Shown: positions 2,249 to 41,993 of the stretch, piece after piece
Numbering within the stretch: position 1 is the first letter of the stretch
How the letters are laid out: the number at the start of each line of letters is the position of its first letter
DNA from: a virus
DNA: 42,398 bases
Direction: 5' to 3' (one strand)
Virus record (IMG/VR): IMGVR_UViG_3300045988_081729
The notes under the pieces: generated by a model
The model's database searches: none
Seen by the model: only the letters and a program-made list of their open reading frames with translations
What the model was told of the DNA's origin: nothing
Made by a program: the position numbers and the translations under genes

Positions 2249-5200
2249 TTAATTTGTATCTCCAGAGATATTATCTCTCATGGATTCAAGTTCACTTCTT
2301 AGATCCGCAACCTCTACTTCAAGGTTCGATCTTCTTTGCTTTTCGAGTTGAAGCTCATGCGTTATTATCGCAATCAAATTGGTATATACCATACTATAAG
2401 TATCAATATAGCCATCCTCAGTGTTCTTCCTGTCGTGGTGTACCAGATCCAGCTCGTCTTCTCGGATTCCTAGTTCTCGCATGGCTTCTACGACATCCTG
2501 TGCGACGAATCCATAACAAATGCGCCCATCACCGTCAATCATCCGATACTGAACTGGTTTTAAGCGATCGAACAGCTCTGAATGAATATCCGTCTTATTG
2601 ATCTTGCTCTCACCGAGTGGAAATATGTTTGTTTTGGCGCGGCGATCGGATGTGACCTGTGGGGAGTTTTTAACGATCAAACGCTCCCATACTCTTCCAC
2701 TATCTCCTAGCATAATCTTTTCGGAGTACGCCTTGGTCGGTGCGAACGCTCCAGTATACACTCCTCCAGACCAGCCACAGCCATAAAATTCGACCTCTGC
2801 CTGATAACCTTTCTTCTTTGATTCAAGAATAATGCTACCGTTACCAATATCGAAGTTTGCTTTGTTGTTGGCATCCGAGTAAGTATTTACAACGAAAGAA
2901 TCGTCAACAGCCCCGGCTATACAGCTTCCAGAAGAACTTGATGTCTCCAATACAGATTCGTGGACACCTTTAATATCTACATATTCGCTCTGGATTGACA
3001 GAGCCGCATTGCCGGATTTTGTTTCAACCAAAATCTTACCGACACCGCCACATAACTCAATAACCGCATCTTTTGCGTTCTTTCCAAGCTGGATCAACTT
3101 ATCACCATAATATGCGAGTGTCGTTCCTGCCCGGTTAAGAATTTCAAATGCTGATGTTGAAATCTTAGTCCGATAGCCAGACCAAGATCCGCTGGTTTTA
3201 TTACCAACTTCCAATCCGGTCCCATCAGTAAACTGCATAAAGTTGGTGGCTGTTTTTGCTGCTTGTAAAGGATTCGCATTAATTGAACCAGATGGTAAAG
3301 AAGCTAATTTGGTTGATGTCCACGTCACTGTATATGGACCAGAACCTTGAGTATAGTTAAATACTCTCAGCTGCCCATACGGTTCATTTAATCTTGTTAT
3401 AAGGCCCCACGTTGAAGTAGTCTTTTTATAAATCCATAACGACCATCCGCCTGAAGATCTTAGGAAATCCAATCCAGGATTTGAGTTATTTGCAGAGATA
3501 AAACTAAACTGGACATCTGTTGTCTCAAAACCTCTGCCACCAAGTTTAAATGTTGTTGGTTGATTTGCATACGAACCTGTGATCTTTATTGTAGCAAATT
3601 CGACATAAAGATTTGACTCACCGTTTCCATTTACCGTATGCACTACCTGATTTGCGTCCTTACCTGCAGCGCCCTGTGGACCTTGAGGACCTGTTGCGCC
3701 GGTTGCACCTTTATCTCCCTGAGGACCTTTATCGCCTTTTACACCTTGAGGACCTTGTGGTCCCTGAGGACCAGTTGCTCCTTTATCCCCTTTATCACCT
3801 TTGGCACCGGTTGCACCTGTGTCGCCTTTGCTTCCCGTGACGCAAACTGCTGTTGTCGTTGAAGTCGTGTTGTCAGTATAGGTAATCACCGATCTCGTCC
3901 AAATATATTTACTGTTCTCCCATCCAGGATAAGTCGTGCTCCACGATCCGCCGGACATGGCTGTTGCTGACGTTGATTTGTAATACTGTTCTACAATAGA
4001 TTTAACGCCTTTACCGGTTGCACCAGTCCCTCCAGTATCTCCTTTGTCACCTTTGGCTCCGGTTGCTCCCTGTGCTCCTGCAATGCAAACTCCATTTTGA
4101 TTTGGCGAATACGTTCTGTTACCAGCTCCGTCCGTTGTTACCGTACGGCTCCACATATACTTTCCATTAACCCATGTTGGCGCTGTCGTCGACCATGATC
4201 CTCCAGAAAGAGAAATCGGCGATGTCGAAAGATAATACTCCACGTCAACAAAAGACACATAATCCTCAGGTGCTGGAGTCCAGTCAGTTGCCGTATTGCC
4301 TTTTTCGATCTTAAGGTTTTTAAACTGATATGAGACCCCAACATTACTGTTCATTCCGGTAAAATATGTATTCTGTGAAGTTCCGCTAGGCAATGTTGCT
4401 GCTGATTTTACAACCCATACCAGTTTTGTCCATACATTCGCAACTGTTTTGTTGTTTACGGCTTTACATGATTGTATCAACATGTTTGAACTGTCACCAT
4501 GTCTAAAGCTTGGATCCATCGATGTAGAAACGCTTGCTTTGACATCTACGGATACGGTATAATTCGTGTCAGCCTCCCATTTTGTGCGTCCAATATAAGA
4601 AAACTGTATTACAGACCATCCGGATTGTTTTACCGAATCTCGTGTAAGTTTACATGTATTAACCCCAGTTTCGGATACAGATTCTTTGGAATAGCCGCCA
4701 GTTTGCATTGACCAACTCCATCCGGTTGTTCCTTTATTGGTATTGGTCGCCAAATTTCGCCCACCAACGACGATTCCCTCTGGAGTGCTACCAACATTAT
4801 AAGCAGTTGAAGTAGTATTGTCTGTGTAGGTAATAATTGTACGAGTCCAGAAATATGGCTTATCTGCACTTGTTGCCGGAGGAGTTGCCGACCATACCCC
4901 CGTAGGAATCGTTGTTCCTGAAGAACTTGCTTGGTACGTAACCGCCGTTGACTTAACACCTTTTCCAGTTGCCCCGGTATCGCCCTTATCTCCCTTACTG
5001 CCGGTAGCTCCTGTTGCACCCCTCGGGATAATTGTATGGCTTATACACAAACCTTTCAGATCTCCAGATGCAGTATTACTCCGATAATAAGCAACATGAG
5101 CATTTTTTGTGTCCGTTGCAGTTCCAACGATTGCAAACATATCACCAATCCGGCAACCATTACGGATACCAGATGTGCTGGACCAAGTTTCTTCGCGATT

Positions 5201-16342: not shown

Positions 16343-17545
16343 TCAGCTCTTCACAGCTACTGTTACATCGCCGGAACGGACTGCTTTATAGTTCTGATCA
16401 CACTCAACCAGCGTGATGTGATGGGTTGCTGTAGATGCGATTTCGGATTCTCCATCCCATTTGCTCCAGTTTTTCACGTCATCGCCGTATTTCACGGTAG
16501 TCGCGGATGCCGCATCTTTGTACTTCCAGCAGTTTTTCATAGACATCAGCTGCTCTTTTACGGAGATCTTTGTTTTTCCTGTTTCAGATCCTTCTGCCGC
16601 CGTTACGGTCAGTTTTCCAAGAGTCTGTGTATCCGCTCCACCAACGGAGATGTAGGCGATGGCATCCAGGTACTCACAGAATAAGCGCAGACCCATAATA
16701 GCGTACAGATCCGAAATTGCTCTCTCGTAGGTACCCTGTGCATGGAAACCGATAAAATGAGTAGTCGGGTCCGTTGTATAGCTGAGGCCAGCTTTTACGA
16801 ACTCAGAGTCGCCCGGATCGATGTAATATCCGATGATGTTGTTGAGTGGAGTAGCAATGACGACGTTTTCCGGGATTTCAGAGCTTACGAAGACAACATC
16901 AGCGCCAAGGAATTTCTTCATGTACTCAAAGCCGAACGCTGTCTGCAGGGAGATATCCGCGGCACCGACATATTTATACACATCCAGTGTATTTACCCAT
17001 ACTGCTACGCCGGTAGCCGTTCTTCTCATCTTTTTGAACTTATCTTTAACCTTTCCGATTGCCATAGCAACCGCCATCTGCCAAGTGCTTTCATGGTCAG
17101 TCAGAGAACCTGCTTTCAGCTGTGCGTACAGCTTATCCATGACAACGTTCTGCAGATCGGTTTTGAACTCTTCGTCGGTATCCTGTACTGCGGCATCATA
17201 TCCCTTTTCCGCGATTGCCTCCAGGGTTACTCCCTTACGATACTTGCTGATTTTAATAGTATCAAACGGAATTTCTTCCACAGCGTACTGGGAGTACGGG
17301 ATCTCTTCGCCCTCTGCGACCTCACCGGACTGCAGGTTTCCTGTCACCTTTTTTGTCTTTAAAACGGTGTTGTTATCTTTCTTGATCATTCGGATAATGC
17401 CCAGGACGTCAAGCAGTGCCTGAATGTTTTTGCCGAAAGATGTTACGAAATCAATCTCACGGGCTTTTACCTGGATCTGTGCCTGACCTGTCATGTTATC
17501 CGGTGCCGCAAATACCTGCAGCCCTAATTTTCCAATTCTATGCAT
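16343..17545 (-). CDS. Major capsid protein with an extra C-terminal domain
   Basis: 400 aa directly after the scaffold gene, AGGAGGA RBS. N-terminal propeptide MHRIGKLGLQVFA. The last ~90 aa (TLGKLTVTAAEG...VTVAVKS) look like an Ig-like decoration domain. Confidence 0.85.
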   Translation of the reverse strand: MHRIGKLGLQVFAAPDNMTGQAQIQVKAREIDFVTSFGKNIQALLDVLGIIRMIKKDNNTVLKTKKVTGNLQSGEVAEGEEIPYSQYAVEEIPFDTIKISKYRKGVTLEAIAEKGYDAAVQDTDEEFKTDLQNVVMDKLYAQLKAGSLTDHESTWQMAVAMAIGKVKDKFKKMRRTATGVAVWVNTLDVYKYVGAADISLQTAFGFEYMKKFLGADVVFVSSEIPENVVIATPLNNIIGYYIDPGDSEFVKAGLSYTTDPTTHFIGFHAQGTYERAISDLYAIMGLRLFCEYLDAIAYISVGGADTQTLGKLTVTAAEGSETGKTKISVKEQLMSMKNCWKYKDAASATTVKYGDDVKNWSKWDGESEIASTATHHITLVECDQNYKAVRSGDVTVAVKS

Positions 17546-17557
17546 GCTGTTTTCCTC

Positions 17558-18193
17558 CTACTGAAATAATGCAATATTTTCCGCAATCAGCCGCTGCCGT
17601 TCAATTGGGTTGCTGACTGCAAGAATCTGTTCTTTTGTCACAGCACCTTTTCCGCCGGATCCGCCCTTTGGGGCATTTCCTTTCAGGGCATCTTTTACGG
17701 CAGCCTGTACTGCATCCTTGTACATCTTTGTGAAAGCTTCGACTGCCGTCTTGGTATCCTCAGCGCTTTCCGATACCAGATGTGCCAGAAGTTCATCCGG
17801 GATGTTGATTTCTTCATCTGCCAGCATCTTTCTGGCCGTCTTTGACATTTCCGAGAGCGAATTCTGCCGTTTCAGATCTGCCAGTTCCTTTTCCAACTTC
17901 CGGTTTTTATACTCCGCTTTCTCTTCCTTTGTCATCTTCGCCAGCTTTTCCGCCTCTGAAAGCTTATCATCAGTCAGTGCCTGCCACTTTTCCTGCGCTT
18001 TGGTCACTGCTGTATTTACCGCTTTCTGCACTCTGCGGTCGAACTCCGCGCGATTCTCTGCCTGCCCCAGAAAATCATCAAACGACATCTCATTGCCGCT
18101 ATCTCCAGAACCTGCTCCAGCTCCGTCCTCGTTTCCGTCTCCGGCTCCGCTGCCGTCTCCTTCGCCGTCTGCAAATACCTGCAGGTTGATCAT
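17558..18193 (-). CDS. Capsid scaffolding protein
   Basis: Start moved to ATG 18193 (GGAGAA RBS), giving MINLQVFADGEGDGSGAG... Highly charged, helical, Ala/Lys/Glu-rich. Upstream of the capsid gene. Confidence 0.8.
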   Translation of the reverse strand: MINLQVFADGEGDGSGAGDGNEDGAGAGSGDSGNEMSFDDFLGQAENRAEFDRRVQKAVNTAVTKAQEKWQALTDDKLSEAEKLAKMTKEEKAEYKNRKLEKELADLKRQNSLSEMSKTARKMLADEEINIPDELLAHLVSESAEDTKTAVEAFTKMYKDAVQAAVKDALKGNAPKGGSGGKGAVTKEQILAVSNPIERQRLIAENIALFQ

Positions 18194-18324
18194 CGGGATT
18201 CTCCAATGATAATGGTTGTTTTTGCGCTTCATTATTTTTCTGTCCTTTCTGCCCCGTCCCGTTCTGTAATAGCCCCGTGCCGTTGCTCCGGAATCATAGT
18301 TTAACGACATTTCGGTCACATCGG

Positions 18325-18612
18325 TTACACGATCCGGACATGCTCCGGAAATTCATCGACCATCAGACAGATGCCGACAAAAAAGGAATCCACCAGAGTT
18401 CTTGCTCTCTCTGATAGATTCCCATACTGTATATCAACCCATCCGGGCGATACTTCGTATTCTATTTCATCCCCTGTCAGATCCTCAATCGAGTGGATCA
18501 GCGTCCGCACAAGGCTGGAAACGCCCGCGCAGACAATATCCTGCCCATGTGGTGCGTACATTGCATGACCGGACACAGTCAATCGGTCTTTTCTTACCGT
18601 TACATCAATCAA
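18325..18612 (-). CDS. prp: Prp-family cysteine protease (ribosomal-processing protease homologue, DUF464)
   Basis: 95 aa: MIDVTVRKD...SGHAMYAPHGQDIVCAGVSSL..., the His/Cys dyad context of Prp. TTG start. Confidence 0.75.
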   Translation of the reverse strand: MIDVTVRKDRLTVSGHAMYAPHGQDIVCAGVSSLVRTLIHSIEDLTGDEIEYEVSPGWVDIQYGNLSERARTLVDSFFVGICLMVDEFPEHVRIV

Positions 18613-18677: not shown

Positions 18678-18989
18678 CTACTCTGCTGTGTAATCTTCAA
18701 TGACCGGAATACCGTACTCAATAGCACATGTATTTTCGATCTTGCACCCTCTGGCATCCTGCCAGCCTTTCGCAAAGTAGGCAATGTCAGCACCAGCCAG
18801 AAGTTCCAGGGATTTTCCAAGGAACCAGAGTGGCTTTGCATCCACCGGAGCTTCCTGGAAGAAAGAATCAATAACCTCTACTTGCTCTCCAATCACGTCT
18901 TCTGCACTCTTGATTGCTTTCTTACGTTCTGCAAGGATATCTTCATCAGACTTTCCTTTCATTGGCTGTGAAATAAACAATTTCTTCAT
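18678..18989 (-). CDS. DUF4406-like protein (nucleoside 2-deoxyribosyltransferase-like fold)
   Basis: Start at ATG 18989 (AGGAGGATTAATC). MKKLFISQPMKGKSDEDI...LLAGADIAYFAKGWQDARGCKIENTCAIEYGIPVI matches my memory of the DUF4406 pattern (YISGPM...GWE.S.G...E). Confidence 0.5.
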   Translation of the reverse strand: MKKLFISQPMKGKSDEDILAERKKAIKSAEDVIGEQVEVIDSFFQEAPVDAKPLWFLGKSLELLAGADIAYFAKGWQDARGCKIENTCAIEYGIPVIEDYTAE

Positions 18990-19000
18990 GATTAATCCTC

Positions 19001-19516
19001 CTAATCTGCAAACACCCAATCATCTGCAAGCATATCTGCCTGACTTGCGAGCCATCCCATCTGTACTCCTGATGTTCCGACAAATGCGATAGCCATGTTT
19101 CCGATAGCATCATGCTCGCAATTCACGATCTCCCCATCCGGCGTCTTATAAGAAATCCCAGTGGCGAGCTGAATGTACTGCTTTTTGCCGTTCCATCCTT
19201 TACGAGCCACCTTAAGTCCTCTTTTCAGATAACGGATAGCATCTCCAAAGCAAAATGTTGACTGACCGCCAAGAACACCACAATTCTTTTCATCAGCAAT
19301 CATCCAATCATCCCTCTGTGTGTGCATGAAAGTATATTCCACCCTCTGTGTTTCACGGATATCAAGAACTTCTCCCTGTCCTTTGTCGGAATCTTTTGAT
19401 CTGCAATGAATCATAATTGTCTGCTTATCAATGTCCCAACACCAGTAACCATTCCAACCAGGAAGTTTCACCTTTTCTCCATGTTTCATTGCTTCAAATG
19501 CTTCTTTGAAATTCAT
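19001..19516 (-). CDS. Tandem DUF2829 (Tad2-like) domain protein
   Basis: Two copies of the DUF2829 signature. Copy 1: MNFKEAFEAMKHGEKVKLPGWNGYW...DDWMIAD. Copy 2: FGDAIRYLKRGLKVARKGWNGKKQYIQL...MLADDWVFAD. AGGAGG RBS. Confidence 0.7.
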   Translation of the reverse strand: MNFKEAFEAMKHGEKVKLPGWNGYWCWDIDKQTIMIHCRSKDSDKGQGEVLDIRETQRVEYTFMHTQRDDWMIADEKNCGVLGGQSTFCFGDAIRYLKRGLKVARKGWNGKKQYIQLATGISYKTPDGEIVNCEHDAIGNMAIAFVGTSGVQMGWLASQADMLADDWVFAD

Positions 19517-19529
19517 GATTTACTACCTC

Positions 19530-19799
19530 CTATTCTTCTGTATGACATGTATTTGTTATTTTACCATATACATCCTCATAAAGTTCCTGCTTGTCACCGT
19601 TGTAGGTGTATTCGGCATAGATACCATCTCCGCTGATAGTGGTTGATGCAAGGCACTTATAATTCTGAAGTGTTTTGCATGACCATACCACGAATACATT
19701 TCCAAGGTCGATCTGAACTTCCGGTCTGTTCTTGTGGTACCATTCAACGAGTTTCTTCTGTGCTACACTCTCGAAATGTGCCATTCCTGTGATAATCAT
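19530..19799 (-). CDS. Hypothetical phage protein (89 aa)
   Basis: ATG with AAGGTGA-type RBS. ...FVVWSCKTLQNYKCLASTTISGDGIYAEYTYNGDKQELY... resembles a conserved small phage family whose function is unknown to me. Confidence 0.6.
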   Translation of the reverse strand: MIITGMAHFESVAQKKLVEWYHKNRPEVQIDLGNVFVVWSCKTLQNYKCLASTTISGDGIYAEYTYNGDKQELYEDVYGKITNTCHTEE

Positions 19800-19863: not shown

Positions 19864-20226
19864 CTATGAAATAATTGCGCCAAGTAATGCAGACAAGATC
19901 ACGTTGAATGTTTCGGCACAATATTCTTTTGCTTTCTGCATACGGCTGTTTTCTTCCAGGAACTGTACGCCCTCAAACGTAATCTCAAATGGTCTGTCTG
20001 TTTGGGGCATTGGCGCGTCTTTTGTTTTGTCAATGACTGCAAACCCTGTAATATATCCCTTCCTTACAAGTGTTACAATGATCTTGCACCAATAGCTTTG
20101 CGGAATATCAAATAATTTTGAATTCCAGGCAAACTGTTCGAGTTCCGGTTCTACGCCGAGTTTCATGCATTCGTACAGATATCTCAGTATTTTATACATG
20201 ATTACTTCCATGTCATTCTTTGCCAT
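19864..20226 (-). CDS. YjcQ-family winged-helix protein, paralogue 2 (120 aa, hydrophobic C-terminal tail)
   Basis: MAKNDMEVIMYKILRYLYECMKLG...IPQSYWCKIIVTLVRKGYITGFAV...FLEENSRMQKAK. Clear paralogue of the upstream gene. AAGGAG RBS. Confidence 0.7.
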   Translation of the reverse strand: MAKNDMEVIMYKILRYLYECMKLGVEPELEQFAWNSKLFDIPQSYWCKIIVTLVRKGYITGFAVIDKTKDAPMPQTDRPFEITFEGVQFLEENSRMQKAKEYCAETFNVILSALLGAIIS

Positions 20227-20251: not shown

Positions 20252-20584
20252 TTATACGAACGGGACCATCTCTTTTACGTCCTTCAACGTCCTTTTTGCC
20301 TTTTCAAGCAACGAATTTTCGAACAGATAGGAAATACCTTTCGGCGTGATAATGGTATCGGGCAGATCGCCTAAAAGAACGCCATCTTTCGTATGATTGA
20401 CGGCAATACCTTTTACATACCCTTCTGTAATCAAGCTTAAAATGATATACTGCCAATAATTTTCGGGAATATTATAGGCTGATGCCGTAAGGTAACACGC
20501 TTCTGGTTTTTCACCCTTTTTCAAACATTCATACAGATATTTCAGTACCTGATATACGATCACAAAGTAATCATTCTGAGCCAT
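20252..20584 (-). CDS. YjcQ-family winged-helix protein, paralogue 1 (110 aa)
   Basis: The track start is GTG. ATG 20584 has an AAGGAGA RBS at 8 nt. MAQNDYFVIVYQVLKYLYECLKKG...IPENYWQYIILSLITEGYVKGIAV...LFENSLLEKAK. Confidence 0.7.
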   Translation of the reverse strand: MAQNDYFVIVYQVLKYLYECLKKGEKPEACYLTASAYNIPENYWQYIILSLITEGYVKGIAVNHTKDGVLLGDLPDTIITPKGISYLFENSLLEKAKRTLKDVKEMVPFV

Positions 20585-20603
20585 TTGCACCGTCTCCTTA
20601 TCA

Positions 20604-20774
20604 TCAGTTGATAATTAACTGATTCTTGCAAGAATCACAGTAAAAAGTATTGGTTTTTTCACGGTCGCCAACAGGAATCATGATTCCTGTTTTACATTTT
20701 TTGCACAAAACTTTTTCGCCTTTCCTCAAGAGCTTTACTCTCTCATGAGGCGGAATATTCAGAGTATTCGTCAT
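20604..20774 (-). CDS. Small zinc-ribbon protein (56 aa), missing from the ORF track
   Basis: Hand translation: MTNTLNIPPHERVKLLRKGEKVLCKKCKTGIMIPVGDREKTNTFYCDSCKNQLIIN (CxxC...CxxC). GGGAGTG RBS. The stop lies 17 nt before the next start. Confidence 0.6.
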   Translation of the reverse strand: MTNTLNIPPHERVKLLRKGEKVLCKKCKTGIMIPVGDREKTNTFYCDSCKNQLIIN

Positions 20775-20780
20775 AAACAA

Positions 20781-22187
20781 TCACTCCCATTTCAGATTCG
20801 GATATTTATCATTTATATGATTAATTATATCCTGGAGCACTTTCTCTGTCAATTCAATGTTTTGATGCCTGTACTCGTTCACATAGCATTGCAGTTCTTG
20901 ACTTTTGGTATTTGGCTTGTTGATTTTGGCATGCGTGGCCTCGTGAATCACCGTAATAGCCGTTTCACGAACCGTTTTGGTATTATCAGCATAAATGTTG
21001 ATTTCTCCATCTTCGAAAAGTCCGTCCAGTCCTTCATCAACATCAACTCCGTACCATACCTTTATTTGAATATCATTTTCCTGAAGATATTCCAACATTT
21101 CCGTTCCGATGCTGGACTTTTTCATTTCTTTCATGATATTTCGAGGTTTGATAACGTCTCGCCCCTTTGATCTGCCATCCAATGTTTGGAATATTCCTTC
21201 GTTGTCTTTATATCTTGCCTTTCTGTTTTTCGATGCTTCCCGTTCTTCTGTGGTACCACCCTGTTCCAGAAAGTCCAACCATTTCTCATATTCTGCACTG
21301 TCTTCATAGGCTGCCGTGGAGCAGTGACACCGCGGATGCATCGGCGGCGCGTTCGTCCCCGGCATCATATCCTGCACTTTGAAATGCTTACCATCCAACG
21401 CCTGGCACCGCTCGCAGACATCTGCATTCCCGCAGGCAACGTATGTATATTCTTCGAATCCATTTCGAATATAGGACTGCTTCTGCGCTTCTGTCTGGAC
21501 TCTGGCAAGCTCCGTGACCATGAGCCGCTCTGCATCCTCCCGGCTTGCACCGAAGCGTTTCTGCAGGTGCACCGCAAGCTCCCGCGGGTTCTTGCCCTGG
21601 ATTAGCCCTGTTTTCAGCAGCTTGTCCAGCTCTGCTTTCAGCATATCCTGATACATCCAGATTCGATCGGAATAAGTGGCGTTATGGAATGACGCATCGA
21701 CAATTGCCCGCGCCATTTTTCCATTTTCCTGCACGGAATTGCCAAGAATACCCGCCTGCCTGCGAAATTCTTCTATTGTCTGCTGTGTCAGCGTCTTGTC
21801 AAAATATTTCTGCAGTTCATCGAAACCGGATACCATTTCCAGCCCGATATTGGCTTTCAGCAGTTCCAGACGGTTGATCTTCATGGTTGCATTGTACAGC
21901 CGCATCTCTTCATTCGCCTGGTCGGAAAAATCTTTTTCTTTGACGTATTTCGCCGCTTTCCTGCCATACTCTTCGATATCGAGCTTGGAAACCCTTCTCT
22001 TTGCTTCTGCCAGCGAAATCTTCTCAGCATTGGCGTATTTTGCGTAAAATCCATCGATTTCCTTCTGAATCTGATCCGCCATATACGCATAGGTCTTCCG
22101 GATCTCTTCTGCATAGGTCTGCTCAGACATCTTATTCTTCTTGGCATGTTCCGTCTCACGTTTCTGCCAGTATTCCTTACTCGTCAT
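20781..22187 (-). CDS. Head morphogenesis protein (SPP1 gp7 / Mu F family) with a C-terminal HExxH extension
   Basis: MuF core ...LMVTELARVQTEAQKQSY...CERCQALDGKHF...PPMHPRCHCS... Start taken at ATG 22187 (the track start is TTG 22205). The last ~140 aa are extra and contain VIHEATHA (20931-20945). Confidence 0.85.
   Translation of the reverse strand: MTSKEYWQKRETEHAKKNKMSEQTYAEEIRKTYAYMADQIQKEIDGFYAKYANAEKISLAEAKRRVSKLDIEEYGRKAAKYVKEKDFSDQANEEMRLYNATMKINRLELLKANIGLEMVSGFDELQKYFDKTLTQQTIEEFRRQAGILGNSVQENGKMARAIVDASFHNATYSDRIWMYQDMLKAELDKLLKTGLIQGKNPRELAVHLQKRFGASREDAERLMVTELARVQTEAQKQSYIRNGFEEYTYVACGNADVCERCQALDGKHFKVQDMMPGTNAPPMHPRCHCSTAAYEDSAEYEKWLDFLEQGGTTEEREASKNRKARYKDNEGIFQTLDGRSKGRDVIKPRNIMKEMKKSSIGTEMLEYLQENDIQIKVWYGVDVDEGLDGLFEDGEINIYADNTKTVRETAITVIHEATHAKINKPNTKSQELQCYVNEYRHQNIELTEKVLQDIINHINDKYPNLKWE
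20824..20852 (-). promoter_or_regulatory. Perfect sigma-A consensus promoter embedded in the 3' end of the MuF gene
   Basis: Minus strand TTGACA (20852-20847), 17 nt, TATAAT (20829-24), about 45 nt upstream of the Zn-ribbon ATG. Confidence 0.65.
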
Positions 22188-23511
22188 CCTGTCCACCGCC
22201 GCCAAACATCTGCTTCATCACTGGATCCGCTCTCACCTTGTTCTGATCGGTATCAATTTTCTTGATTTCATCCTGTACATTGTCCACAATAGACAGCACC
22301 CCGAGCTGTGTTTCCTGGCTGACCACACCTTCCAGATTCTTCGCGATCTCTGCCTCTTCCTGCAGGTTTGCCGGGAAATTTGGTGTAAAATGTGGATGGA
22401 TCTTCACCCAGTCATCTTTTTTCATTCCTGAGACCGGATTTGAGAAAATCAGACGATACCTCCGGTTCATTCCGCTGGTAAATTTCCGCTCTTTCGTTTT
22501 TTCCAAGTTACTCATTGCCTGCAGCTTATATTTCATGGCGATGCCGGAACTGGTGCCAAAATTCTCATCCGAGATATTGGCCACCATGCTGATATGGAAA
22601 ATGAGCTTTTCCAGACGATCGATCAGATGCTCCTGCGTGGTATCACCATCCGGTTTCTGAAGAAATTCGACAATCAACCGTTCGGTGTCCCCGTCGAAAT
22701 TAATGATTCTGTCATCCCGGATATGCGCCACATCGTCTTCTTCCAGCTTGGAACCAAGAACCTTGAGATAGGCATCCGCGAAATAGTCAACATCATTGGC
22801 TTTCTCGCTGATCGCCTTGTTGTATGCATTAATCATCGTAAGGACCGGCTCGAAGATTCCCATACGCTCCTTGTTTTCTACGTACTCCGATGCCGGAACG
22901 CCGTCGAAGCCGTGTATCTTCTCGTCTGCATCCCAGAGTAATTTTCCTTTGATTGTAAACCAGCGGACCTTCGTCTCGTCCGATACGCTTCCATGAAGGA
23001 TCTGATTCGAATCGTAATACAGCCGCACGAAATATCGTTCCCTTTCCAGCACGGAATCGTCGTAGATCATGAATGCATCCAGCGGGCTCAGATAGGTGAT
23101 ACCGATATTTCCGTTCTCATCTACGTAATACATTTCATAGCCTTTGCCGAAGATACTGCAGATCTTGGACAGTTCGGCATTGTTATCGTCCTGATCATTA
23201 TACTGATCCAGAAAATCAACATATTTCTCAACCGCTTCGTTTCCATCGTCTACCTGCAGTTTGATCGGATGCCCGATGAAGAAGCCGTTCATCGTATCCA
23301 CGATGTATTTCGCAAAGTTGACCATGATCCGGTTGTCCGGCTTCCACTTGGGCTTTAACGGCTCATGCAGGATCGGGTAATCCGTCTCGTAGGCCTCCTG
23401 CAGCATGCTGTATCTAAATGCGCACTCTCCGGAATGCCGCATGATAAATTCGTTCAATTTGGCATCTGTCAGCGTCTCTTCCGACGGTAGCCTATACAAA
23501 TTCGTTCGCAC
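22177..23511 (-). CDS. Portal protein (SPP1 gp6-like)
   Basis: 444 aa immediately after terL. GTG start with an AAGGAGGG RBS 8 nt upstream. Sequence pattern fits the SPP1-type portal family. Confidence 0.85.
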   Translation of the reverse strand: MRTNLYRLPSEETLTDAKLNEFIMRHSGECAFRYSMLQEAYETDYPILHEPLKPKWKPDNRIMVNFAKYIVDTMNGFFIGHPIKLQVDDGNEAVEKYVDFLDQYNDQDDNNAELSKICSIFGKGYEMYYVDENGNIGITYLSPLDAFMIYDDSVLERERYFVRLYYDSNQILHGSVSDETKVRWFTIKGKLLWDADEKIHGFDGVPASEYVENKERMGIFEPVLTMINAYNKAISEKANDVDYFADAYLKVLGSKLEEDDVAHIRDDRIINFDGDTERLIVEFLQKPDGDTTQEHLIDRLEKLIFHISMVANISDENFGTSSGIAMKYKLQAMSNLEKTKERKFTSGMNRRYRLIFSNPVSGMKKDDWVKIHPHFTPNFPANLQEEAEIAKNLEGVVSQETQLGVLSIVDNVQDEIKKIDTDQNKVRADPVMKQMFGGGGQDDE

Positions 23512-26187: not shown

Positions 26188-27663
26188 TCACGCAAATCTC
26201 AACTGCTCCTGGCTGTCATTGATGTTAAGGTTCGGCACCCGCTCCCCTACTTTTAAGTACGAGCAGTTGGCTTCTACTAACTTTTCCGCCATAATCGGCA
26301 CCACACTGTTCCCGATCCGCGCCACCTGCTTTGCAATCGGGTACGGTTTCCAGTTGTAATCCCGATCAATGATATAATCTTTCGGGAATCCTTGCATCAG
26401 CTTCAGTTCTTCCGGTTTCAGCATTCGCAGGAAGATATCCTTCAGAATGTATTTTTCTCCCTGAATATCCAGCACCACATTAACCAAACCAAAACGATCC
26501 TTCGTGGTGATCGTATCCAGTGGCCTGTCAATGCCTTGGCAGCTTCCGCCGGATCCGTAATATTTAATCAGGAATGCGGATATCAGCCCGAAGTGCCCCG
26601 GCGATGTTGTAATCGTATGCAATGGCTCATCGCAACCCTGTCCGATACCAGTCTTGTAATATTTGGTAATAAACGCTGTCACCAGCCCGTACCGGTTACT
26701 GGTATCAATGGTCTTGATCGGCTCCGTTAGAAACTGGCCCCGGGAATCTCCGGCTTTCGTCTCGCCGTGATACTGGATGAGAAAAGCAGTCACCAGACGA
26801 TTGTGATCTACGGTGGTAATTGTGCTGCAAGGAGAATGCAGGTCACTTCCACAACCTTTATAGTTTCCACCATATGCTTTATCCAGATACGACAAAAACA
26901 GCTTTTCTCCATCTTTTACGATATATGGATTCGGATTTTCCACGATATATTTCCGGATTCCATTCGCGATACGCTTCATAGTCGCGTCCGCCAGAGGCTT
27001 TGGCCTATCAAATATGGATCGTCCAAAATCTGACCAGTCTATGTAGTCGCCACAGGCTTTCCACCGTGGCTCTCGATCCTTGAAGTGAGTCGGTGCCGGC
27101 CATACAATCTCACGTCCGTCTCTCCGGAAGATTGCGTACCAGCGTTTCCGTGTCGTGGGTGCTCCGTAGTCTGCTGCTATCAGTTCTCTGCACTCAAACA
27201 TATATCCAAGAGATTTCATTGCCATAATAAATTTTCGATAGTCCTCTCCACGACGTTCCTTAATCGGATGACCATTACTGTCAAGCGGCCCCCACTGTTG
27301 TATTTCCTCTACGTTTTCCATCAGGATCACGTCCGGCAGAATTGCTTTAGCGTGTTTGTAAACAGCCCACGGAAGAATTCTCAATCCTTTCTCCCGTGGT
27401 TTACCGCCTTTTGCCTTGCTATGGCTTGTACAGTCCGGCGACGCCCACATCAGAGCCACGTGCCGGCCTTTTACATATTTCTTCAAGTCAACCTTAAAAA
27501 TATCTTCTGTTAGATGCAGCGTGTTCGGATGATTCGTTTTGTGCATCAGGATGGCATCCGGATCGTGATTAATCGCAATATCTACCGGTCTCCCCAGTGC
27601 CATCTCGATGCCGACGGAGGCGCCGCCCCCGCCAGCAAAGCAGTCAATAATCAGATCCTTCAT
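26188..27663 (-). CDS. DNA (cytosine-5) methyltransferase, orphan
   Basis: Motif I DCFAGGGG, motif IV SPDC, motif VI ENV, motif VIII TTRKRWY, QGFP and motif X IGNSVVP. No restriction endonuclease gene nearby. Confidence 0.85.
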   Translation of the reverse strand: MKDLIIDCFAGGGGASVGIEMALGRPVDIAINHDPDAILMHKTNHPNTLHLTEDIFKVDLKKYVKGRHVALMWASPDCTSHSKAKGGKPREKGLRILPWAVYKHAKAILPDVILMENVEEIQQWGPLDSNGHPIKERRGEDYRKFIMAMKSLGYMFECRELIAADYGAPTTRKRWYAIFRRDGREIVWPAPTHFKDREPRWKACGDYIDWSDFGRSIFDRPKPLADATMKRIANGIRKYIVENPNPYIVKDGEKLFLSYLDKAYGGNYKGCGSDLHSPCSTITTVDHNRLVTAFLIQYHGETKAGDSRGQFLTEPIKTIDTSNRYGLVTAFITKYYKTGIGQGCDEPLHTITTSPGHFGLISAFLIKYYGSGGSCQGIDRPLDTITTKDRFGLVNVVLDIQGEKYILKDIFLRMLKPEELKLMQGFPKDYIIDRDYNWKPYPIAKQVARIGNSVVPIMAEKLVEANCSYLKVGERVPNLNINDSQEQLRFA

Positions 27664-36885: not shown

Positions 36886-37617
36886 TTATACCGCTTCTTC
36901 TTTTTTAAGGTACTTATTCAGAAAATACTGCTGGCCTTTCCCAGTTACCTTTGTAGTTTTGGTCATCCGCACGCTGCCGTCCGGATTGGAAATCACGGTT
37001 TCTTTGATCTGAAATAGACCGTCCGCTACATATCGCTGCGTCGGCATGTTCCGACTGGATCCAGTCTTCATGAGGTACCCTTCGTTGCGGAGCTGTTCGA
37101 ACAATCTTTTCTGTCCGGTATCTACGCCATTCTGACGCAGGAGCTTCGCGAGGTCGCCGATCAGGATGGAGCTGGTGCTTGCGCTCACCGCGTCCGCGAA
37201 GATTTCCTTCGGCTTCATGCGCTCGTTCTCCTCAATCAGTTTCTTGTTATCTTCTTTCAGAGTGTCGATGGTTCTGTCTGCGAGCTTCAGCGCCCTTGCC
37301 ATCACCTGCTCCGGAGTGTTCCAGGCCTTCTCCAAGTCGACGAAGTACTGACGATACAGTTTACCTTTCTCGGAGCGCTGAATCATGCAGATCTGTTTGG
37401 CCATATCTACGGAAATGTTATGATCTATAGTTCTTCCACCGTTTTCTAAATTTTTAGAAAACGTGAAATAGTCCATATTTTCAACAAATCCATATGCTGA
37501 CATGTTTTTAAACCAATCAGCATACTTGCTTTTAATTTCCAGTGCTTCATGCAGGTCTCTCGCCGATACTGTCGGCTGTTCTCCTTCGTAATTAATAGGA
37601 ATCAACATCTTTTCCAT
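36886..37617 (-). CDS. Antirepressor (Rha/AntA-like N-terminal domain + KilAC C-terminal domain)
   Basis: Start ATG 37617 (GAAGGTGAG RBS). VSARDLHEALEIKSKYADWFKNM...FVENMDYF (Rha-like) and ...FADAVSASTSSILIGDLAKLLRQNGVDTGQKRLFEQLRNEGYL (KilAC). Confidence 0.8.
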   Translation of the reverse strand: MEKMLIPINYEGEQPTVSARDLHEALEIKSKYADWFKNMSAYGFVENMDYFTFSKNLENGGRTIDHNISVDMAKQICMIQRSEKGKLYRQYFVDLEKAWNTPEQVMARALKLADRTIDTLKEDNKKLIEENERMKPKEIFADAVSASTSSILIGDLAKLLRQNGVDTGQKRLFEQLRNEGYLMKTGSSRNMPTQRYVADGLFQIKETVISNPDGSVRMTKTTKVTGKGQQYFLNKYLKKEEAV

Positions 37618-37765
37618 GTAACTCACCTTCTTTCTTTTTTCTGTCATCCTGTTTCTGGCTTACCATGGCTTCTCCCATCCCCAAGAGATAGCCCTTGTCA
37701 AAATCAGACATTTTAGGAATTGCCGTTGCGATGGTTTCCAGAATCTGTTTTTCTCTTTCTGACAT
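37592..37765 (-). CDS. First early gene: small protein (57 aa), missing from the ORF track
   Basis: AAAGGAAGTGA RBS. Hand translation: MSEREKQILETIATAIPKMSDFDKGYLLGMGEAMVSQKQDDRKKKEGELHGKDVDSY. Not an obvious HTH. Confidence 0.5.
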   Translation of the reverse strand: MSEREKQILETIATAIPKMSDFDKGYLLGMGEAMVSQKQDDRKKKEGELHGKDVDSY

Positions 37766-37824: not shown

Positions 37825-37853
37825 ATTATATGTGGCTTATGGTCATTTGTCAA
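37825..37853 (-). promoter_or_regulatory. Early (lytic) promoter, perfect sigma-A consensus
   Basis: Minus strand TTGACA (37853-48), 17 nt, TATAAT (37830-25). A TGTGGC operator box sits in the spacer. Confidence 0.75.
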
Positions 37854-39808: not shown

Positions 39809-39894
39809 TTAATCCGTAATTTTTTGAATTGTTAAACGTATGTACATGGGATATTGTATCCCGCACAAAATACATTTCAAAAAGGAGAATGTCT

Positions 39895-40575
39895 ATGAAA
39901 AAGAAAATCGTAACCCTCATTCTGGCAACTGCCCTCACCGCATCCGCTCTGACTGCCTGCGGATCGTCAACCGCTTCCAGCTCCTCGAGTTCCTCAAGCT
40001 CTTCGTCTACTGCTTCCAGCAGCATCAGCGAGACCGAAACTCCAACGCCTACGGAAGAGGCAACACCGACTCCAACCGAAGAAGCCACAAGTACACAGTC
40101 CGAATCCGAAGACTCCAGCGTTCCGTGGGACTATACATCGGCTCTTAATTCAGCTGAAAGCTACAGTGAAATAATGCACATGTCAAAAGCCGGAATCTAC
40201 GATCAGTTGACCTCCGAGTATGGAGACCAATTCTCTGCCGAGGCTGCCCAGTATGCAGTTGACAATATGACCGCCGACTGGAATGCAAATGCCCTTGCAA
40301 CAGCAGAAAACTACAACGAAACGATGCATATGTCGAAAGCCGGACTCTATGACCAGCTTACATCTGAAAGTGGGGAAAAATTTACCGCTGAAGAGGCGCA
40401 GTACGCTGTCGATAATATAAATGCTGATTGGAACGCAAACGCCCTCGAGACCGCAAAAGACTACCGTGATAACATGGATATGTCGCCAGAAGCGATCCGT
40501 GATCAGCTCACCTCTGAATATGGTGAACAGTTTACCGCCGAGGAAGCCGATTACGCTATACAGAATTTAAACTAA
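39895..40575 (+). CDS. ltp: Ltp-type surface lipoprotein (superinfection exclusion) with three Ltp repeats
   Basis: Start ATG 39895 (AAGGAGA RBS). Signal peptide plus lipobox MKKKIVTLILATALTASALTAC. Ser/Thr/Pro linker. Three repeats: AL.(S/T)A..Y...M.MS...(I/L).DQLTSE.G..F(S/T)AE.A.YA(V/I).N. Confidence 0.8.
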   Translation: MKKKIVTLILATALTASALTACGSSTASSSSSSSSSSSTASSSISETETPTPTEEATPTPTEEATSTQSESEDSSVPWDYTSALNSAESYSEIMHMSKAGIYDQLTSEYGDQFSAEAAQYAVDNMTADWNANALATAENYNETMHMSKAGLYDQLTSESGEKFTAEEAQYAVDNINADWNANALETAKDYRDNMDMSPEAIRDQLTSEYGEQFTAEEADYAIQNLN

Positions 40576-40674: not shown

Positions 40675-40763
40675 CACCAGAACAAGCGAAAAGTTTGTTT
40701 GGTGTTATTTTTGTACCTTTTTTTAGGCGAAACTATCAAAAAACACAAAGGAGGATGGCTATT

Positions 40764-41993
40764 ATGGCTGAAGGAGTTAGAAAAAGAGGAAAAACATGGT
40801 CGTACTATTTTGATACTGCAAAGATAAACGGCGAGAGAAAGAAAATTGAGAAAGGTGGTTTCCGGACGCAAAAAGAGGCTTTAGATGCCCGCGCGGCCGC
40901 GATCGCGCAGTATAATAATGTTGGTCGAACATTCTCACCAAAAGAAATCAGTGTTTCCGATTATCTTGACTATTGGTTAGAGACTGCAATCAAAAAGAAT
41001 ATTGATCACGGATACAGCTATAATACATACCGCGACTACGAATCCAAAATACGTTTACATTTAAAGCCAGCGTTCGGCATGTACAAATTAAGCAGCTTTC
41101 AATATGCTCCGGACAAAGTTCAGGAATGGGTTGACAACATGAAATTAAAAGGATTGTCAAAGCGTATGATTCAAAATACTTTGACCTGCCTGCAGGGCGC
41201 ATTGAACTATGCGATTATACCGCTGAAATACATTCAGGCAAATCCATGCATTCCTGTTAGGGTAGGCAAAATGCCAATAGATCCAGATGCCAAAGCTCAC
41301 GCAGAATATGTATGCCCTGTTGAAGAATTCGAACGAATCCTGCAGCGTTTTCCACCCGAAAACTATTTTCATCTTTCCCTGGTAGTTCCATACAACTGCG
41401 GAACCCGAATAAGCGAAACATTTGCAATTGACCTAAACGAAGACGTAGATTTCCAGAAACATGAACTGCATATCAGAGGACAGTGGCAAAAAAGGAATAA
41501 GACCTGGTACATAAAGCCACCAAAATATGACTCCTATCGTACAATCAAAATGGGAGAAACTCTGGAGCAGGCATTGAAGTACGGCATACATCAAAGAAAA
41601 TTAAACAAATTGAAATATGGCGGCGCGTATTTGAACACTTATGTCATGCCGGATAATTCCATAACTCAAATCAGGGCAGATATCCAGGTTGCTTATAAGG
41701 AAATCACCCCTCTGTGTGTCAAGGATACTGGCGAACTACTTACGCCGGACTCTTTCAAGTATTGTGCCCGGGTTGTTCATTACGAGCTTGGCAATGTATT
41801 GTTTCACTCGCACTGTCTGCGGCATACGCATGGCACTATTCTGGCCGAGGCCGGTGTGAACCCCAAAACAGTTATGGAACGGCTGGGACATAAAGATATC
41901 ACAACGACATTGCAGACATACACATTCAACACAGAGCTGATGCAGCAAACGGCAGTTGATGTATTCGAGAATGCGATTCACAAAAAAGCATAG
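40764..41993 (+). CDS. int: Tyrosine integrase (phage integrase family with an N-terminal arm-binding domain)
   Basis: Start ATG 40764 (GGAGG at 9 nt). MAEGVRKRGKTWSYYFD... arm-type N-terminus. Catalytic ...GTRISE...HCLRHTHGT...LGHKDITTTLQTYTF (R..HxxR..Y). Confidence 0.9.
   Translation: MAEGVRKRGKTWSYYFDTAKINGERKKIEKGGFRTQKEALDARAAAIAQYNNVGRTFSPKEISVSDYLDYWLETAIKKNIDHGYSYNTYRDYESKIRLHLKPAFGMYKLSSFQYAPDKVQEWVDNMKLKGLSKRMIQNTLTCLQGALNYAIIPLKYIQANPCIPVRVGKMPIDPDAKAHAEYVCPVEEFERILQRFPPENYFHLSLVVPYNCGTRISETFAIDLNEDVDFQKHELHIRGQWQKRNKTWYIKPPKYDSYRTIKMGETLEQALKYGIHQRKLNKLKYGGAYLNTYVMPDNSITQIRADIQVAYKEITPLCVKDTGELLTPDSFKYCARVVHYELGNVLFHSHCLRHTHGTILAEAGVNPKTVMERLGHKDITTTLQTYTFNTELMQQTAVDVFENAIHKKA

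Follow-up and report, generated by a model that had tools for sequence, protein, structure and literature searches.

The window analysed here, a 42,398-nucleotide stretch of viral DNA (IMG/VR record IMGVR_UViG_3300045988_081729), carries on its minus strand a gene for a 171-aa protein made of two Tad2-type domains in tandem. Sequence profiles and structure models confirm that both halves are Tad2-fold domains, which diverged anciently. By analogy with characterised Tad2 proteins, we propose with a probability of about 0.6 that this protein is an anti-defence sponge, which would dimerise into a pseudo-tetramer of two N-terminal (N) and two C-terminal (C) domains. The gene and its parts are the following.

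19001..19516, minus strand: tandem Tad2-like gene, ATG start, stop codon at 19001-19003, 171-aa product (open reading frame list, Pfam, phrog_1048).
19292..19516, minus strand: N-type divergent Tad2-like domain, residues 1-75, with the motifs KVKLPGWNGYWCW, LDIRET and YTFMHTQRDDW (Pfam, hhalign, AlphaFold2).
19256..19291, minus strand: inter-domain linker, residues 76-87 (EKNCGVLGGQST; family consensus N-x-P-x-L-G-G; alignment A1).
19004..19255, minus strand: C-type canonical Tad2 domain, residues 88-171 (KGWNGK ... GWLASQADMLADDW; Pfam, PDB sequence and Foldseek matches).
19526..19531, minus strand: ribosome-binding site AGGAGG, 9 nt 5' of the ATG, read directly from the sequence.

The protein quoted in an earlier, sequence-only reading of this DNA is the exact translation of the open reading frame 19001-19516 on the minus strand, and the two DUF2829 (Tad2-like) domains claimed there were found. 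The Pfam family PF11195 (Tad2-like, formerly DUF2829) matches the whole protein in two stretches (91.8 bits, E 3.9e-26). Taken alone, the C half (residues 83-171) scores 72 bits (E 6e-20) and the N half (residues 1-78) 26.6 bits (E 8.6e-6), which is marginal for a gathering cut-off of 25 bits. In hhalign, a profile of 19 N-half sequences aligned over the whole domain with a profile of C halves, SPO1 Tad2 and ModTad2 (probability 94.3%, E 1e-7).

Comparison of an AlphaFold model with Tad2 structures, which had been proposed as a check, gave the same answer. The full-length AlphaFold2 model (predicted local distance difference test, pLDDT, 86.9; predicted template modelling score, pTM, 0.64) has significant fold matches in the PDB only among Tad2 and AcrIIA7 structures (24 Foldseek matches with E<=1e-3 and template modelling (TM) scores, TMt, of at most 0.81; next E 0.58). 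By these matches the model has the Tad2 fold, which is defined by an N-terminal helix, an antiparallel sheet and a short C-terminal helix before a final Trp-containing strand. The PDB sequence matches of weight are also restricted to Tad2 and AcrIIA7 (E 7e-12 to 3.5e-8; next E 0.66), the best being AcrIIA7 (9KZR, E 7e-12). For the model of the N half alone (pLDDT 91.6, pTM 0.80), the best PDB match, and the sole one with TM above 0.5, is SPO1 Tad2 (TM 0.60-0.61, root-mean-square deviation 3.4 A, with a Foldseek E of only 0.04). Direct BLASTP of the N half against the C half aligned only the first 21 residues (helix 1 and GWNG; 48% identity, E 6e-5), so the repeat is old and diverged. A recent internal duplication is ruled out by this short alignment and by the different subtypes of the two halves.

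SPO1 Tad2 (gp34.65; 8SME/8SMF/8SMG) and ModTad2 (9EIB) are single-domain homotetrameric sponges for glycocyclic ADP-ribose (gcADPR) and histidine-ADP-ribose (His-ADPR). The gcADPR (3'cADPR) pocket of SPO1 Tad2 is built from W25, N26, W73 and D79 of both protomers together with S76 and T78, and the equivalent pocket of HgmTad2 from W21/N22/G23 and W87/L88/S90/T92/D93. The C half has PDB sequence matches to AcrIIA7/HgmTad2, SPO1 Tad2, ModTad2 and SptTad2, and it is collinear with SPO1 Tad2 and ModTad2 in the alignment, with which it shares the fold, a 44-residue insert and the W/N/W/D pocket core. It keeps all four core residues (W108, N109, W155 and D161), and also G110, L156 and S158. The sole pocket change is A160, which replaces the adenine-hydrogen-bonding Thr of SPO1 Tad2 and ModTad2. 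The pocket-helix motif closest to that of the C half is found in HgmTad2/AcrIIA7 (GWLASQ-DML-DW). In 56 distinct close relatives these pocket residues are invariant or nearly so, with W108, N109, W155, S158 and D161 invariant, and the ratio of non-synonymous to synonymous substitutions (dN/dS) of the C half is 0.07 (434 pairs of close relatives). The residues of this pocket argue for a fit to ADP-ribose signals made by Toll/interleukin-1 receptor (TIR) domains, that is, gcADPR of the 3'cADPR/2'cADPR type and possibly His-ADPR or N7-cADPR.

The binding of cyclic oligonucleotides was also considered in the sequence-only reading. HgmTad2/AcrIIA7 (8KBI-8KBM, 9KZR) is a long-insertion Tad2 that binds cyclic dinucleotides (CDNs) as well and is a reported binder of trans-activating CRISPR RNA (tracrRNA). 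In HgmTad2 and SptTad2, CDN binding is marked by an insertion between beta2 and beta5 and by contacts of the R31/S47/F70/N85 type, and this combination is not found in the C half. The insertion of 35-41 residues that makes the cGG/cGAMP pocket is absent, and the segment from GWNG to the pocket Trp has 44 residues in the C half and SPO1 Tad2 versus 63 in HgmTad2, a length that rules out a CDN pocket of the HgmTad2 type. In addition, the cGG contact N85 of HgmTad2 corresponds to M153. Cyclic-oligonucleotide binding of the HgmTad2 kind is thus unlikely, and by its sequence the C half belongs to the canonical Tad2 proteins with a short insert and shows no trace of the known CDN site.

Since AcrIIA7 is the best PDB sequence match, an AcrIIA7-like role deserves mention, in which a Tad2-fold oligomer would bind structured RNA (tracrRNA) and block CRISPR-Cas9. 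We regard this as highly improbable. AcrIIA7 without its head domain was reported to bind tracrRNA in vitro (2026 paper), and DUF2829 genes are labelled 'anti-CRISPR protein' in some phage records; however, another group saw no anti-Cas9 activity of the same AcrIIA7 protein, in vitro or in vivo. A positively charged groove is reported for RNA binding by AcrIIA7, but the window protein is acidic to neutral by its computed isoelectric point (5.8 for the whole protein, 5.5 for the N half and 6.8 for the C half), a value of bulk charge that does not describe the surface. The full small-molecule pocket kept in the C half also speaks against RNA as the ligand.

The divergence of the halves that had been claimed is strong and is clear at the pocket. 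All four core residues are kept only in the C half; the N half keeps two of them, W21 and N22, and with them the Trp-x-Gly loop. In its profile alignment, the second Trp corresponds to Y61, the Ser to T62, the Thr to M64 and the Asp to H65. The N type has a motif pattern of its own, KLPxWxGYWxW...LDIRET...YT..W, and a family consensus of G22, Y61, T62 and N65 at the pocket positions. W21, G23 and W71 are invariant across the family and P19, W25 and R54 are conserved in at least 90% of it; the conserved residues proper to the N half are K17, P19, W25, W27, D52, I53, R54, Y61 and T62. Among 19 family members 37-64% identical to the window protein, the mean pairwise identity is 50% for the N half versus 31% for the C half, and the N-half dN/dS is 0.11 in the same 434 pairs. 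This ratio and the family-wide conservation rule out a chance or decaying sequence. As judged from these sequences, the N half represents a conserved Tad2 subtype of its own, on which purifying selection is strong, and because the halves are so diverged, any pocket that involves it must differ from the canonical one.

Four N-half positions differ between the window lineage, which has N22/H65/T66/R68, and most of the family, which has G22/N65/(I,M)66/S68.

19451-19453, 19322-19324, 19319-19321 and 19313-19315, minus strand: codons of the N-half variant residues 22, 65, 66 and 68, respectively.

Since residues 22 and 65 stand where the Tad2 pocket has its Asn and its Asp, there may be two specificity variants of the N-type site. 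The covariation of N22 with H65/R68 was rejected as evidence of a shared pocket, since it marks a single lineage (22 sequences, 91% identical) and counts as one event.

The N type also occurs alone. Protein gp006 of Clostridium perfringens phage vB_CpeS-CP51 has 68 aa and the full motif set (KVKLPEWEGYWIW...LDIRET...W), and its gene lies in the gap between the MuF and scaffold genes, next to an Acb4-like gene.

L165:2501-2707 and 2707-3171: CP51 gp006 (N type) and gp007 (Acb4-like, PF13876-type), the end of gp006 overlapping the start of gp007.

From this sequence the N type appears to be an autonomous module. Like the parts of dual-sponge fusions, the C type and the N type are each also found alone, the sponge role of the N type being putative.

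The 12-residue linker is conserved too. In alignment A1, N78 is kept in 16/19 sequences, L82 in 16/18, and G83 and G84 in 14/18 each, and N78 and G83 are invariant across the 56 close relatives. Such conservation suggests a fixed geometry between the domains. It would also suit a rather doubtful alternative, in which only the C half binds ligand, while the N half has a structural part as a degenerate copy that replaces the second protomer or that caps or regulates the assembly. The tandem would then add no new specificity; it would fix the stoichiometry and halve the number of canonical pockets. The loss of the second pocket Trp and of the Asp from the N half, its marginal Pfam score and the fixed intramolecular N-C packing suggested by the linker are in line with this. 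An N-terminal addition that modulates a Tad2 core is documented for AcrIIA7: the 'head' of P. dorei AcrIIA7, to which the N half would be likened, modulates AcrIIA7 activity, but that head is a two-helix domain and not a Tad2 copy. On the other hand, the N half is the better conserved of the two across the family, it has invariant polar and aromatic residues of its own (R54, W25, W27, Y61 and T62), and its stand-alone occurrence in CP51 is unexpected for a mere adaptor.

A scan of the genome collection with the window protein showed that the C-type domain recurs at 65-81% identity in several architectures. It stands alone with about 84 aa in five loci (L121, L127, L130, L132 and L152; in L121, 84 aa and PF11195 E 2e-24) and follows an Acb4 domain (PF13876) in the fusion of L129. 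In Acb4-Tad2 fusions of Clostridia prophages, the Tad2 part is 65-76% identical to the C half of the window. In many loci the C-type Tad2 is preceded by a short domain with the pattern 'MKQYIGTK...GYESWSPK..FEEAYR', and in L133 and L142 by an unrelated domain of about 75 aa. The proteins P0188, P0241 and P0177 place the latter domain or a third DUF2829-like unit before the N+C pair, P0177 having three DUF2829-like units. The short domain has no Pfam match and is found before Tad2 in many Oscillospiraceae prophages; the unannotated domain of about 75 aa has the motif ..IHMPGGE..NPxVAxKMxYIxxTYDxDL... Both are candidates for new sponge modules. In a Butyribacter intestini prophage, one 194-aa open reading frame (L123:3671-4255) fuses a DUF4406 domain to a Tad2 part 77% identical to the C half. 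This fusion is a Rosetta-stone link, and it suggests that DUF4406 may itself be a counter-defence or nucleotide-handling module. Taken together, the architectures present the C type as a shuffled sponge module, as far as sequences can tell.

In Bacillus phages the tandem protein seems to have a counterpart encoded by two genes.

L166:1277-1519 and 1519-1782: XO28_0062 and XO28_0063 of Bacillus phage phi4J1, an overlapping pair of DUF2829 genes.

Overlapping pairs also occur in SpaA1 (P60/P61), BceA1, Waukesha92, phiS58, TP21T and BMBtp3, and the overlap suggests coupled translation. As in the tandem protein, a variant with Tyr in the place of the pocket Trp comes first and a canonical Tad2 second, the latter with GWNG and GWLASQTD (GWLASQTDMLANDW). 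The pairs differ from the tandem in being two polypeptides and in the upstream protein, which has IWGGYW (of the WGGYW type) and keeps the Asp and the ADMLAEDW helix (AYQADMLAEDW). The N-type profile matches only the first 28 residues of this protein, which is thus a cousin and not an orthologue of the N type. The arrangement hints at heteromeric Tad2 complexes.

The Tad2 proteins characterised so far assemble as homotetramers, with pockets at the two-fold interfaces where protomers meet. ADPR-type signals are bound on one class of two-fold interface and CDNs or cyclic UMP (cUMP) on another, and the ligands vary by member (gcADPR, His-ADPR, N7-cADPR, cyclic CMP/cUMP and CDNs). From this background we infer how the window protein would assemble, what it would bind and that it would counter defence. 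Given such homotetramers, two copies of the protein, each a covalent pair of two different Tad2-type domains in one 19-kDa chain, would most likely form the pseudo-tetramer of two N and two C domains. The choice of the true two-fold axis would decide the layout of the pockets, which could be a canonical C:C' pocket plus an altered N:N' pocket, or two identical hybrid N:C pockets; either way the pockets would be non-equivalent or asymmetric. A fully symmetric homotetramer with two identical pockets, as in SPO1 Tad2 and ModTad2, is not available to a chain with a second, divergent Tad2-type domain. The protein would act in infection or when the prophage is induced, by sequestering a host immune second messenger that would otherwise switch on Thoeris-like effectors.

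Fusions of Tad2 with other sponges are frequent, and they block two systems simultaneously (bioRxiv 2025.07.12.664507). The window protein is similar to the Acb4-Tad2 and Sequestin(PF21825)-Tad2 fusions of that study in joining Tad2 to a second small oligomerising module in one chain, but its partner is another Tad2-fold domain. Because of this, its modules can share interfaces and build mixed pockets, and need not form two separate homo-oligomeric sponges. A more specific version of the proposal, which we hold only tentatively and with the odds against it, is that the N type is a distinct sponge subtype with a ligand of its own. Together with the canonical Tad2 it would build a heteromeric pseudo-tetramer with asymmetric pockets, which could neutralise two different immune signals or bind one asymmetric signal more tightly.

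The tandem architecture is not rare, and it is already catalogued as phrog_1048, which covers the 171-aa protein end to end (E 9e-57), and as 'DUF2829 domain-containing protein'. The protein has 6,528 relatives in the protein database; the best 120 of them all have about 150-280 aa, mostly about 170 aa, and are at least 74% identical. The exact sequence occurs on 237 contigs and near-identical ones on at least 1,000, and at least 579 IMG/VR loci carry the tandem gene. At the level of 50%-identity representatives, about two dozen clusters are full-length tandems. Some 35 species-representative genomes carry the tandem, nearly all of them Lachnospiraceae or related Clostridia, including Blautia, Dorea, Coprococcus, Eubacterium ramulus, Faecalimonas and Oribacterium. 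It is also carried by two phages in culture, phiRg507T2_3 of R. gnavus (gp19, 74% identity) and DO134P1 of Dorea (67%). No description of a Tad2-Tad2 tandem was found in the literature searched, which included word searches of the key Tad2 papers. The statement that known Tad2 proteins are single-domain is valid for the characterised ones, and does not extend to the family, since Tad2 fusions are published and the tandem family is abundant and already a PHROG. The C half agrees with a gcADPR-type Tad2 in every sequence and fold criterion, but since the N half does not retain all of the core pocket residues, the protein as a whole should not be filed simply as 'a Tad2' but as a hetero-pair Tad2.

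The window is a prophage of a gut bacterium, temperate and of the siphovirus type by its gene content. It has genes for an integrase (40695-41993), an Ltp lipoprotein, an antirepressor, a replication module and a C5 methylase, and head and tail genes for a terminase, an SPP1-type portal, MuF, a scaffold, the major capsid protein and tail proteins. The interval from MuF to Prp/scaffold holds six small accessory genes (Zn-ribbon, two YjcQ paralogues, DUF6275, tandem Tad2 and DUF4406), with intergenic gaps of 11-65 nt. The features of this region are listed below, with a second promoter-like site found elsewhere in the window.

18678..18989, minus strand: DUF4406 (nucleoside 2-deoxyribosyltransferase-like) gene, directly downstream of the tandem gene, ATG at 18989, 103 aa, 11-nt gap.
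19530..19799, minus strand: DUF6275 gene, directly upstream of the tandem gene (PF19791 E 1.4e-27).
19864-20226 and 20252-20590, minus strand: YjcQ-family paralogues, 42% identical to each other.
20604-20780, minus strand: Zn-ribbon protein, 58 aa.
20781-22205, minus strand: MuF-like minor head protein.
20824..20852, minus strand: perfect sigma-70 consensus TTGACA-17-TATAAT (12/12 match) at the start of the accessory island, within the 3' end of the MuF gene.
37825-37853, minus strand: second perfect TTGACA-17-TATAAT, about 180 nt upstream of the antirepressor gene (36886-37647).

The ribosome-binding site of the tandem gene overlaps the stop codon of the DUF6275 gene. The DUF4406 gene scores 21.0 bits with PF14359, just below the cut-off of 22, and matches phrog_355 (E 1.4e-18). 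DUF6275 and DUF4406 recur beside the tandem gene in varying order; DUF6275 does so in otherwise unrelated backbones, upstream or downstream (for example L010-L012, L037, L049, L095, L105 and L122). Nothing on DUF4406 or DUF6275 in defence was found in the literature searched.

The sequence-only reading had called the position inside the head module atypical. This was not sustained: the gap from portal/MuF to scaffold is a recurring site for the tandem gene and its relatives, and the gene is also found in at least four other contexts. Its other positions include the region after capsid and connector genes, a small-gene region with a resolvase, and the space between holin and endolysin. Across unrelated phage backbones and positions it keeps 73-93% identity, and in L060 and L077 it adjoins an Acb4 gene. 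The position in the window is a typical hotspot for morons and accessory genes.

A perfect TTGACA-17-TATAAT occurs at two sites of the window, versus 0.03 expected by chance. The site at 37825-37853, between the antirepressor gene and a divergent set of genes, the last of which is the integrase, is probably an early lytic promoter. The site at 20824-20852 is a possible independent promoter of the accessory island. A similar promoter-like site in L097 and L106 may reflect the conserved MuF C-terminus, and at other loci, strong promoters were not convincingly enriched ahead of the gene after the removal of duplicates. The possible promoter is counted in favour of the sponge reading, together with the fusion and neighbour partners of the C type, Acb4 among them, and the movement of the gene between backbones.

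Several points weigh against the proposed sponge. At the level of the protein, two of the four core pocket residues are absent from the N half, and the pocket Asn is also lost in most N-half relatives; with the Trp and the Asp missing, pockets that involve the N half may not bind ADPR-type ligands at all. Elsewhere in the tandem family, GWNG or Trp is lost even from the C half, and gcADPR may therefore not be the target of the family as a whole. The full-length pTM of 0.64, from a monomer model, leaves the relative orientation of the N and C domains unsettled. At the level of the genome, the short gaps make the tandem gene look co-transcribed with the late head genes, while phage sponges are thought to act early, and the site at 20824-20852 lies within the MuF coding sequence and could be a by-product of coding. 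As for the literature, the Tad2 homologues screened in bioRxiv 2025.08.24.671296 were proteins of 80-100 aa that included no N-type sequence and no tandem-family member, and the searches returned nothing decisive on Thoeris in Lachnospiraceae.

The late position leads to one more alternative, which we consider improbable: that the protein binds a nucleotide-like small molecule without a counter-defence role, and buffers a messenger or metabolite in lysogeny or late infection, or takes part in head assembly. The place of the gene within a late morphogenesis operon with short intergenic gaps, the altered canonical pocket residues in many family members, and the very tight binding of the housekeeping signal c-di-GMP by HgmTad2 would agree with such a role. 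However, the gene is tied to no particular set of head genes and is also present in lysis and small-gene regions, and the domains fused to it or encoded beside it are of the sponge kind (Acb4) and not structural. An anti-defence sponge thus remains our preferred reading.

Some other features of the prophage were observed.

18325-18612, 17558-18319 and 16343-17545, minus strand: Prp cysteine protease (PF04327), scaffold and major capsid protein, Prp lying just upstream of the other two.
26188-27663, minus strand: C5 cytosine DNA methylase.
39829-40575, plus strand: Ltp-type surface lipoprotein with three repeats, of the superinfection-exclusion type, adjoining the integrase.

The N-termini of the scaffold and major capsid proteins read MINLQVFA|DGEG and KLGLQVFA|APDN. 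We take them to resemble the L27 propeptide site cut by Prp, as is reported of the capsid proteins of S. aureus phage 80alpha, and head maturation is probably Prp-dependent. The MuF protein has a C-terminal extension of about 140 residues past the Pfam domain with an HExxH motif (HEATH), which could be a metallopeptidase-like or effector domain. The sibling phages L006 and L009 have a single YjcQ copy. The C5 methylase may protect against restriction.

The characterised phage sponges (Tad1, Tad2, Acb2, Acb4 and Sequestin) are homo-oligomers with identical pockets on symmetry axes. The tandem Tad2 is an extension of this well-studied theme that is testable and abundant in gut phages, and the R. 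gnavus phage phiRg507T2_3 and the Dorea phage DO134P1 offer cultured systems for such tests. If mixed assemblies are formed, they would illustrate how duplication and asymmetry let sponges diversify their specificity, and the Tad2-type set used for anti-defence annotation would widen beyond the screened proteins of 80-100 aa. Should the more tentative version, with a distinct N-type ligand, hold, this would be the first hetero-oligomeric, pseudo-symmetric phage sponge, and DUF4406 and DUF6275 would be marked as further counter-defence partners. The family points to immune-signalling defences in the Lachnospiraceae, abundant human gut commensals whose conflicts with phages are little studied.

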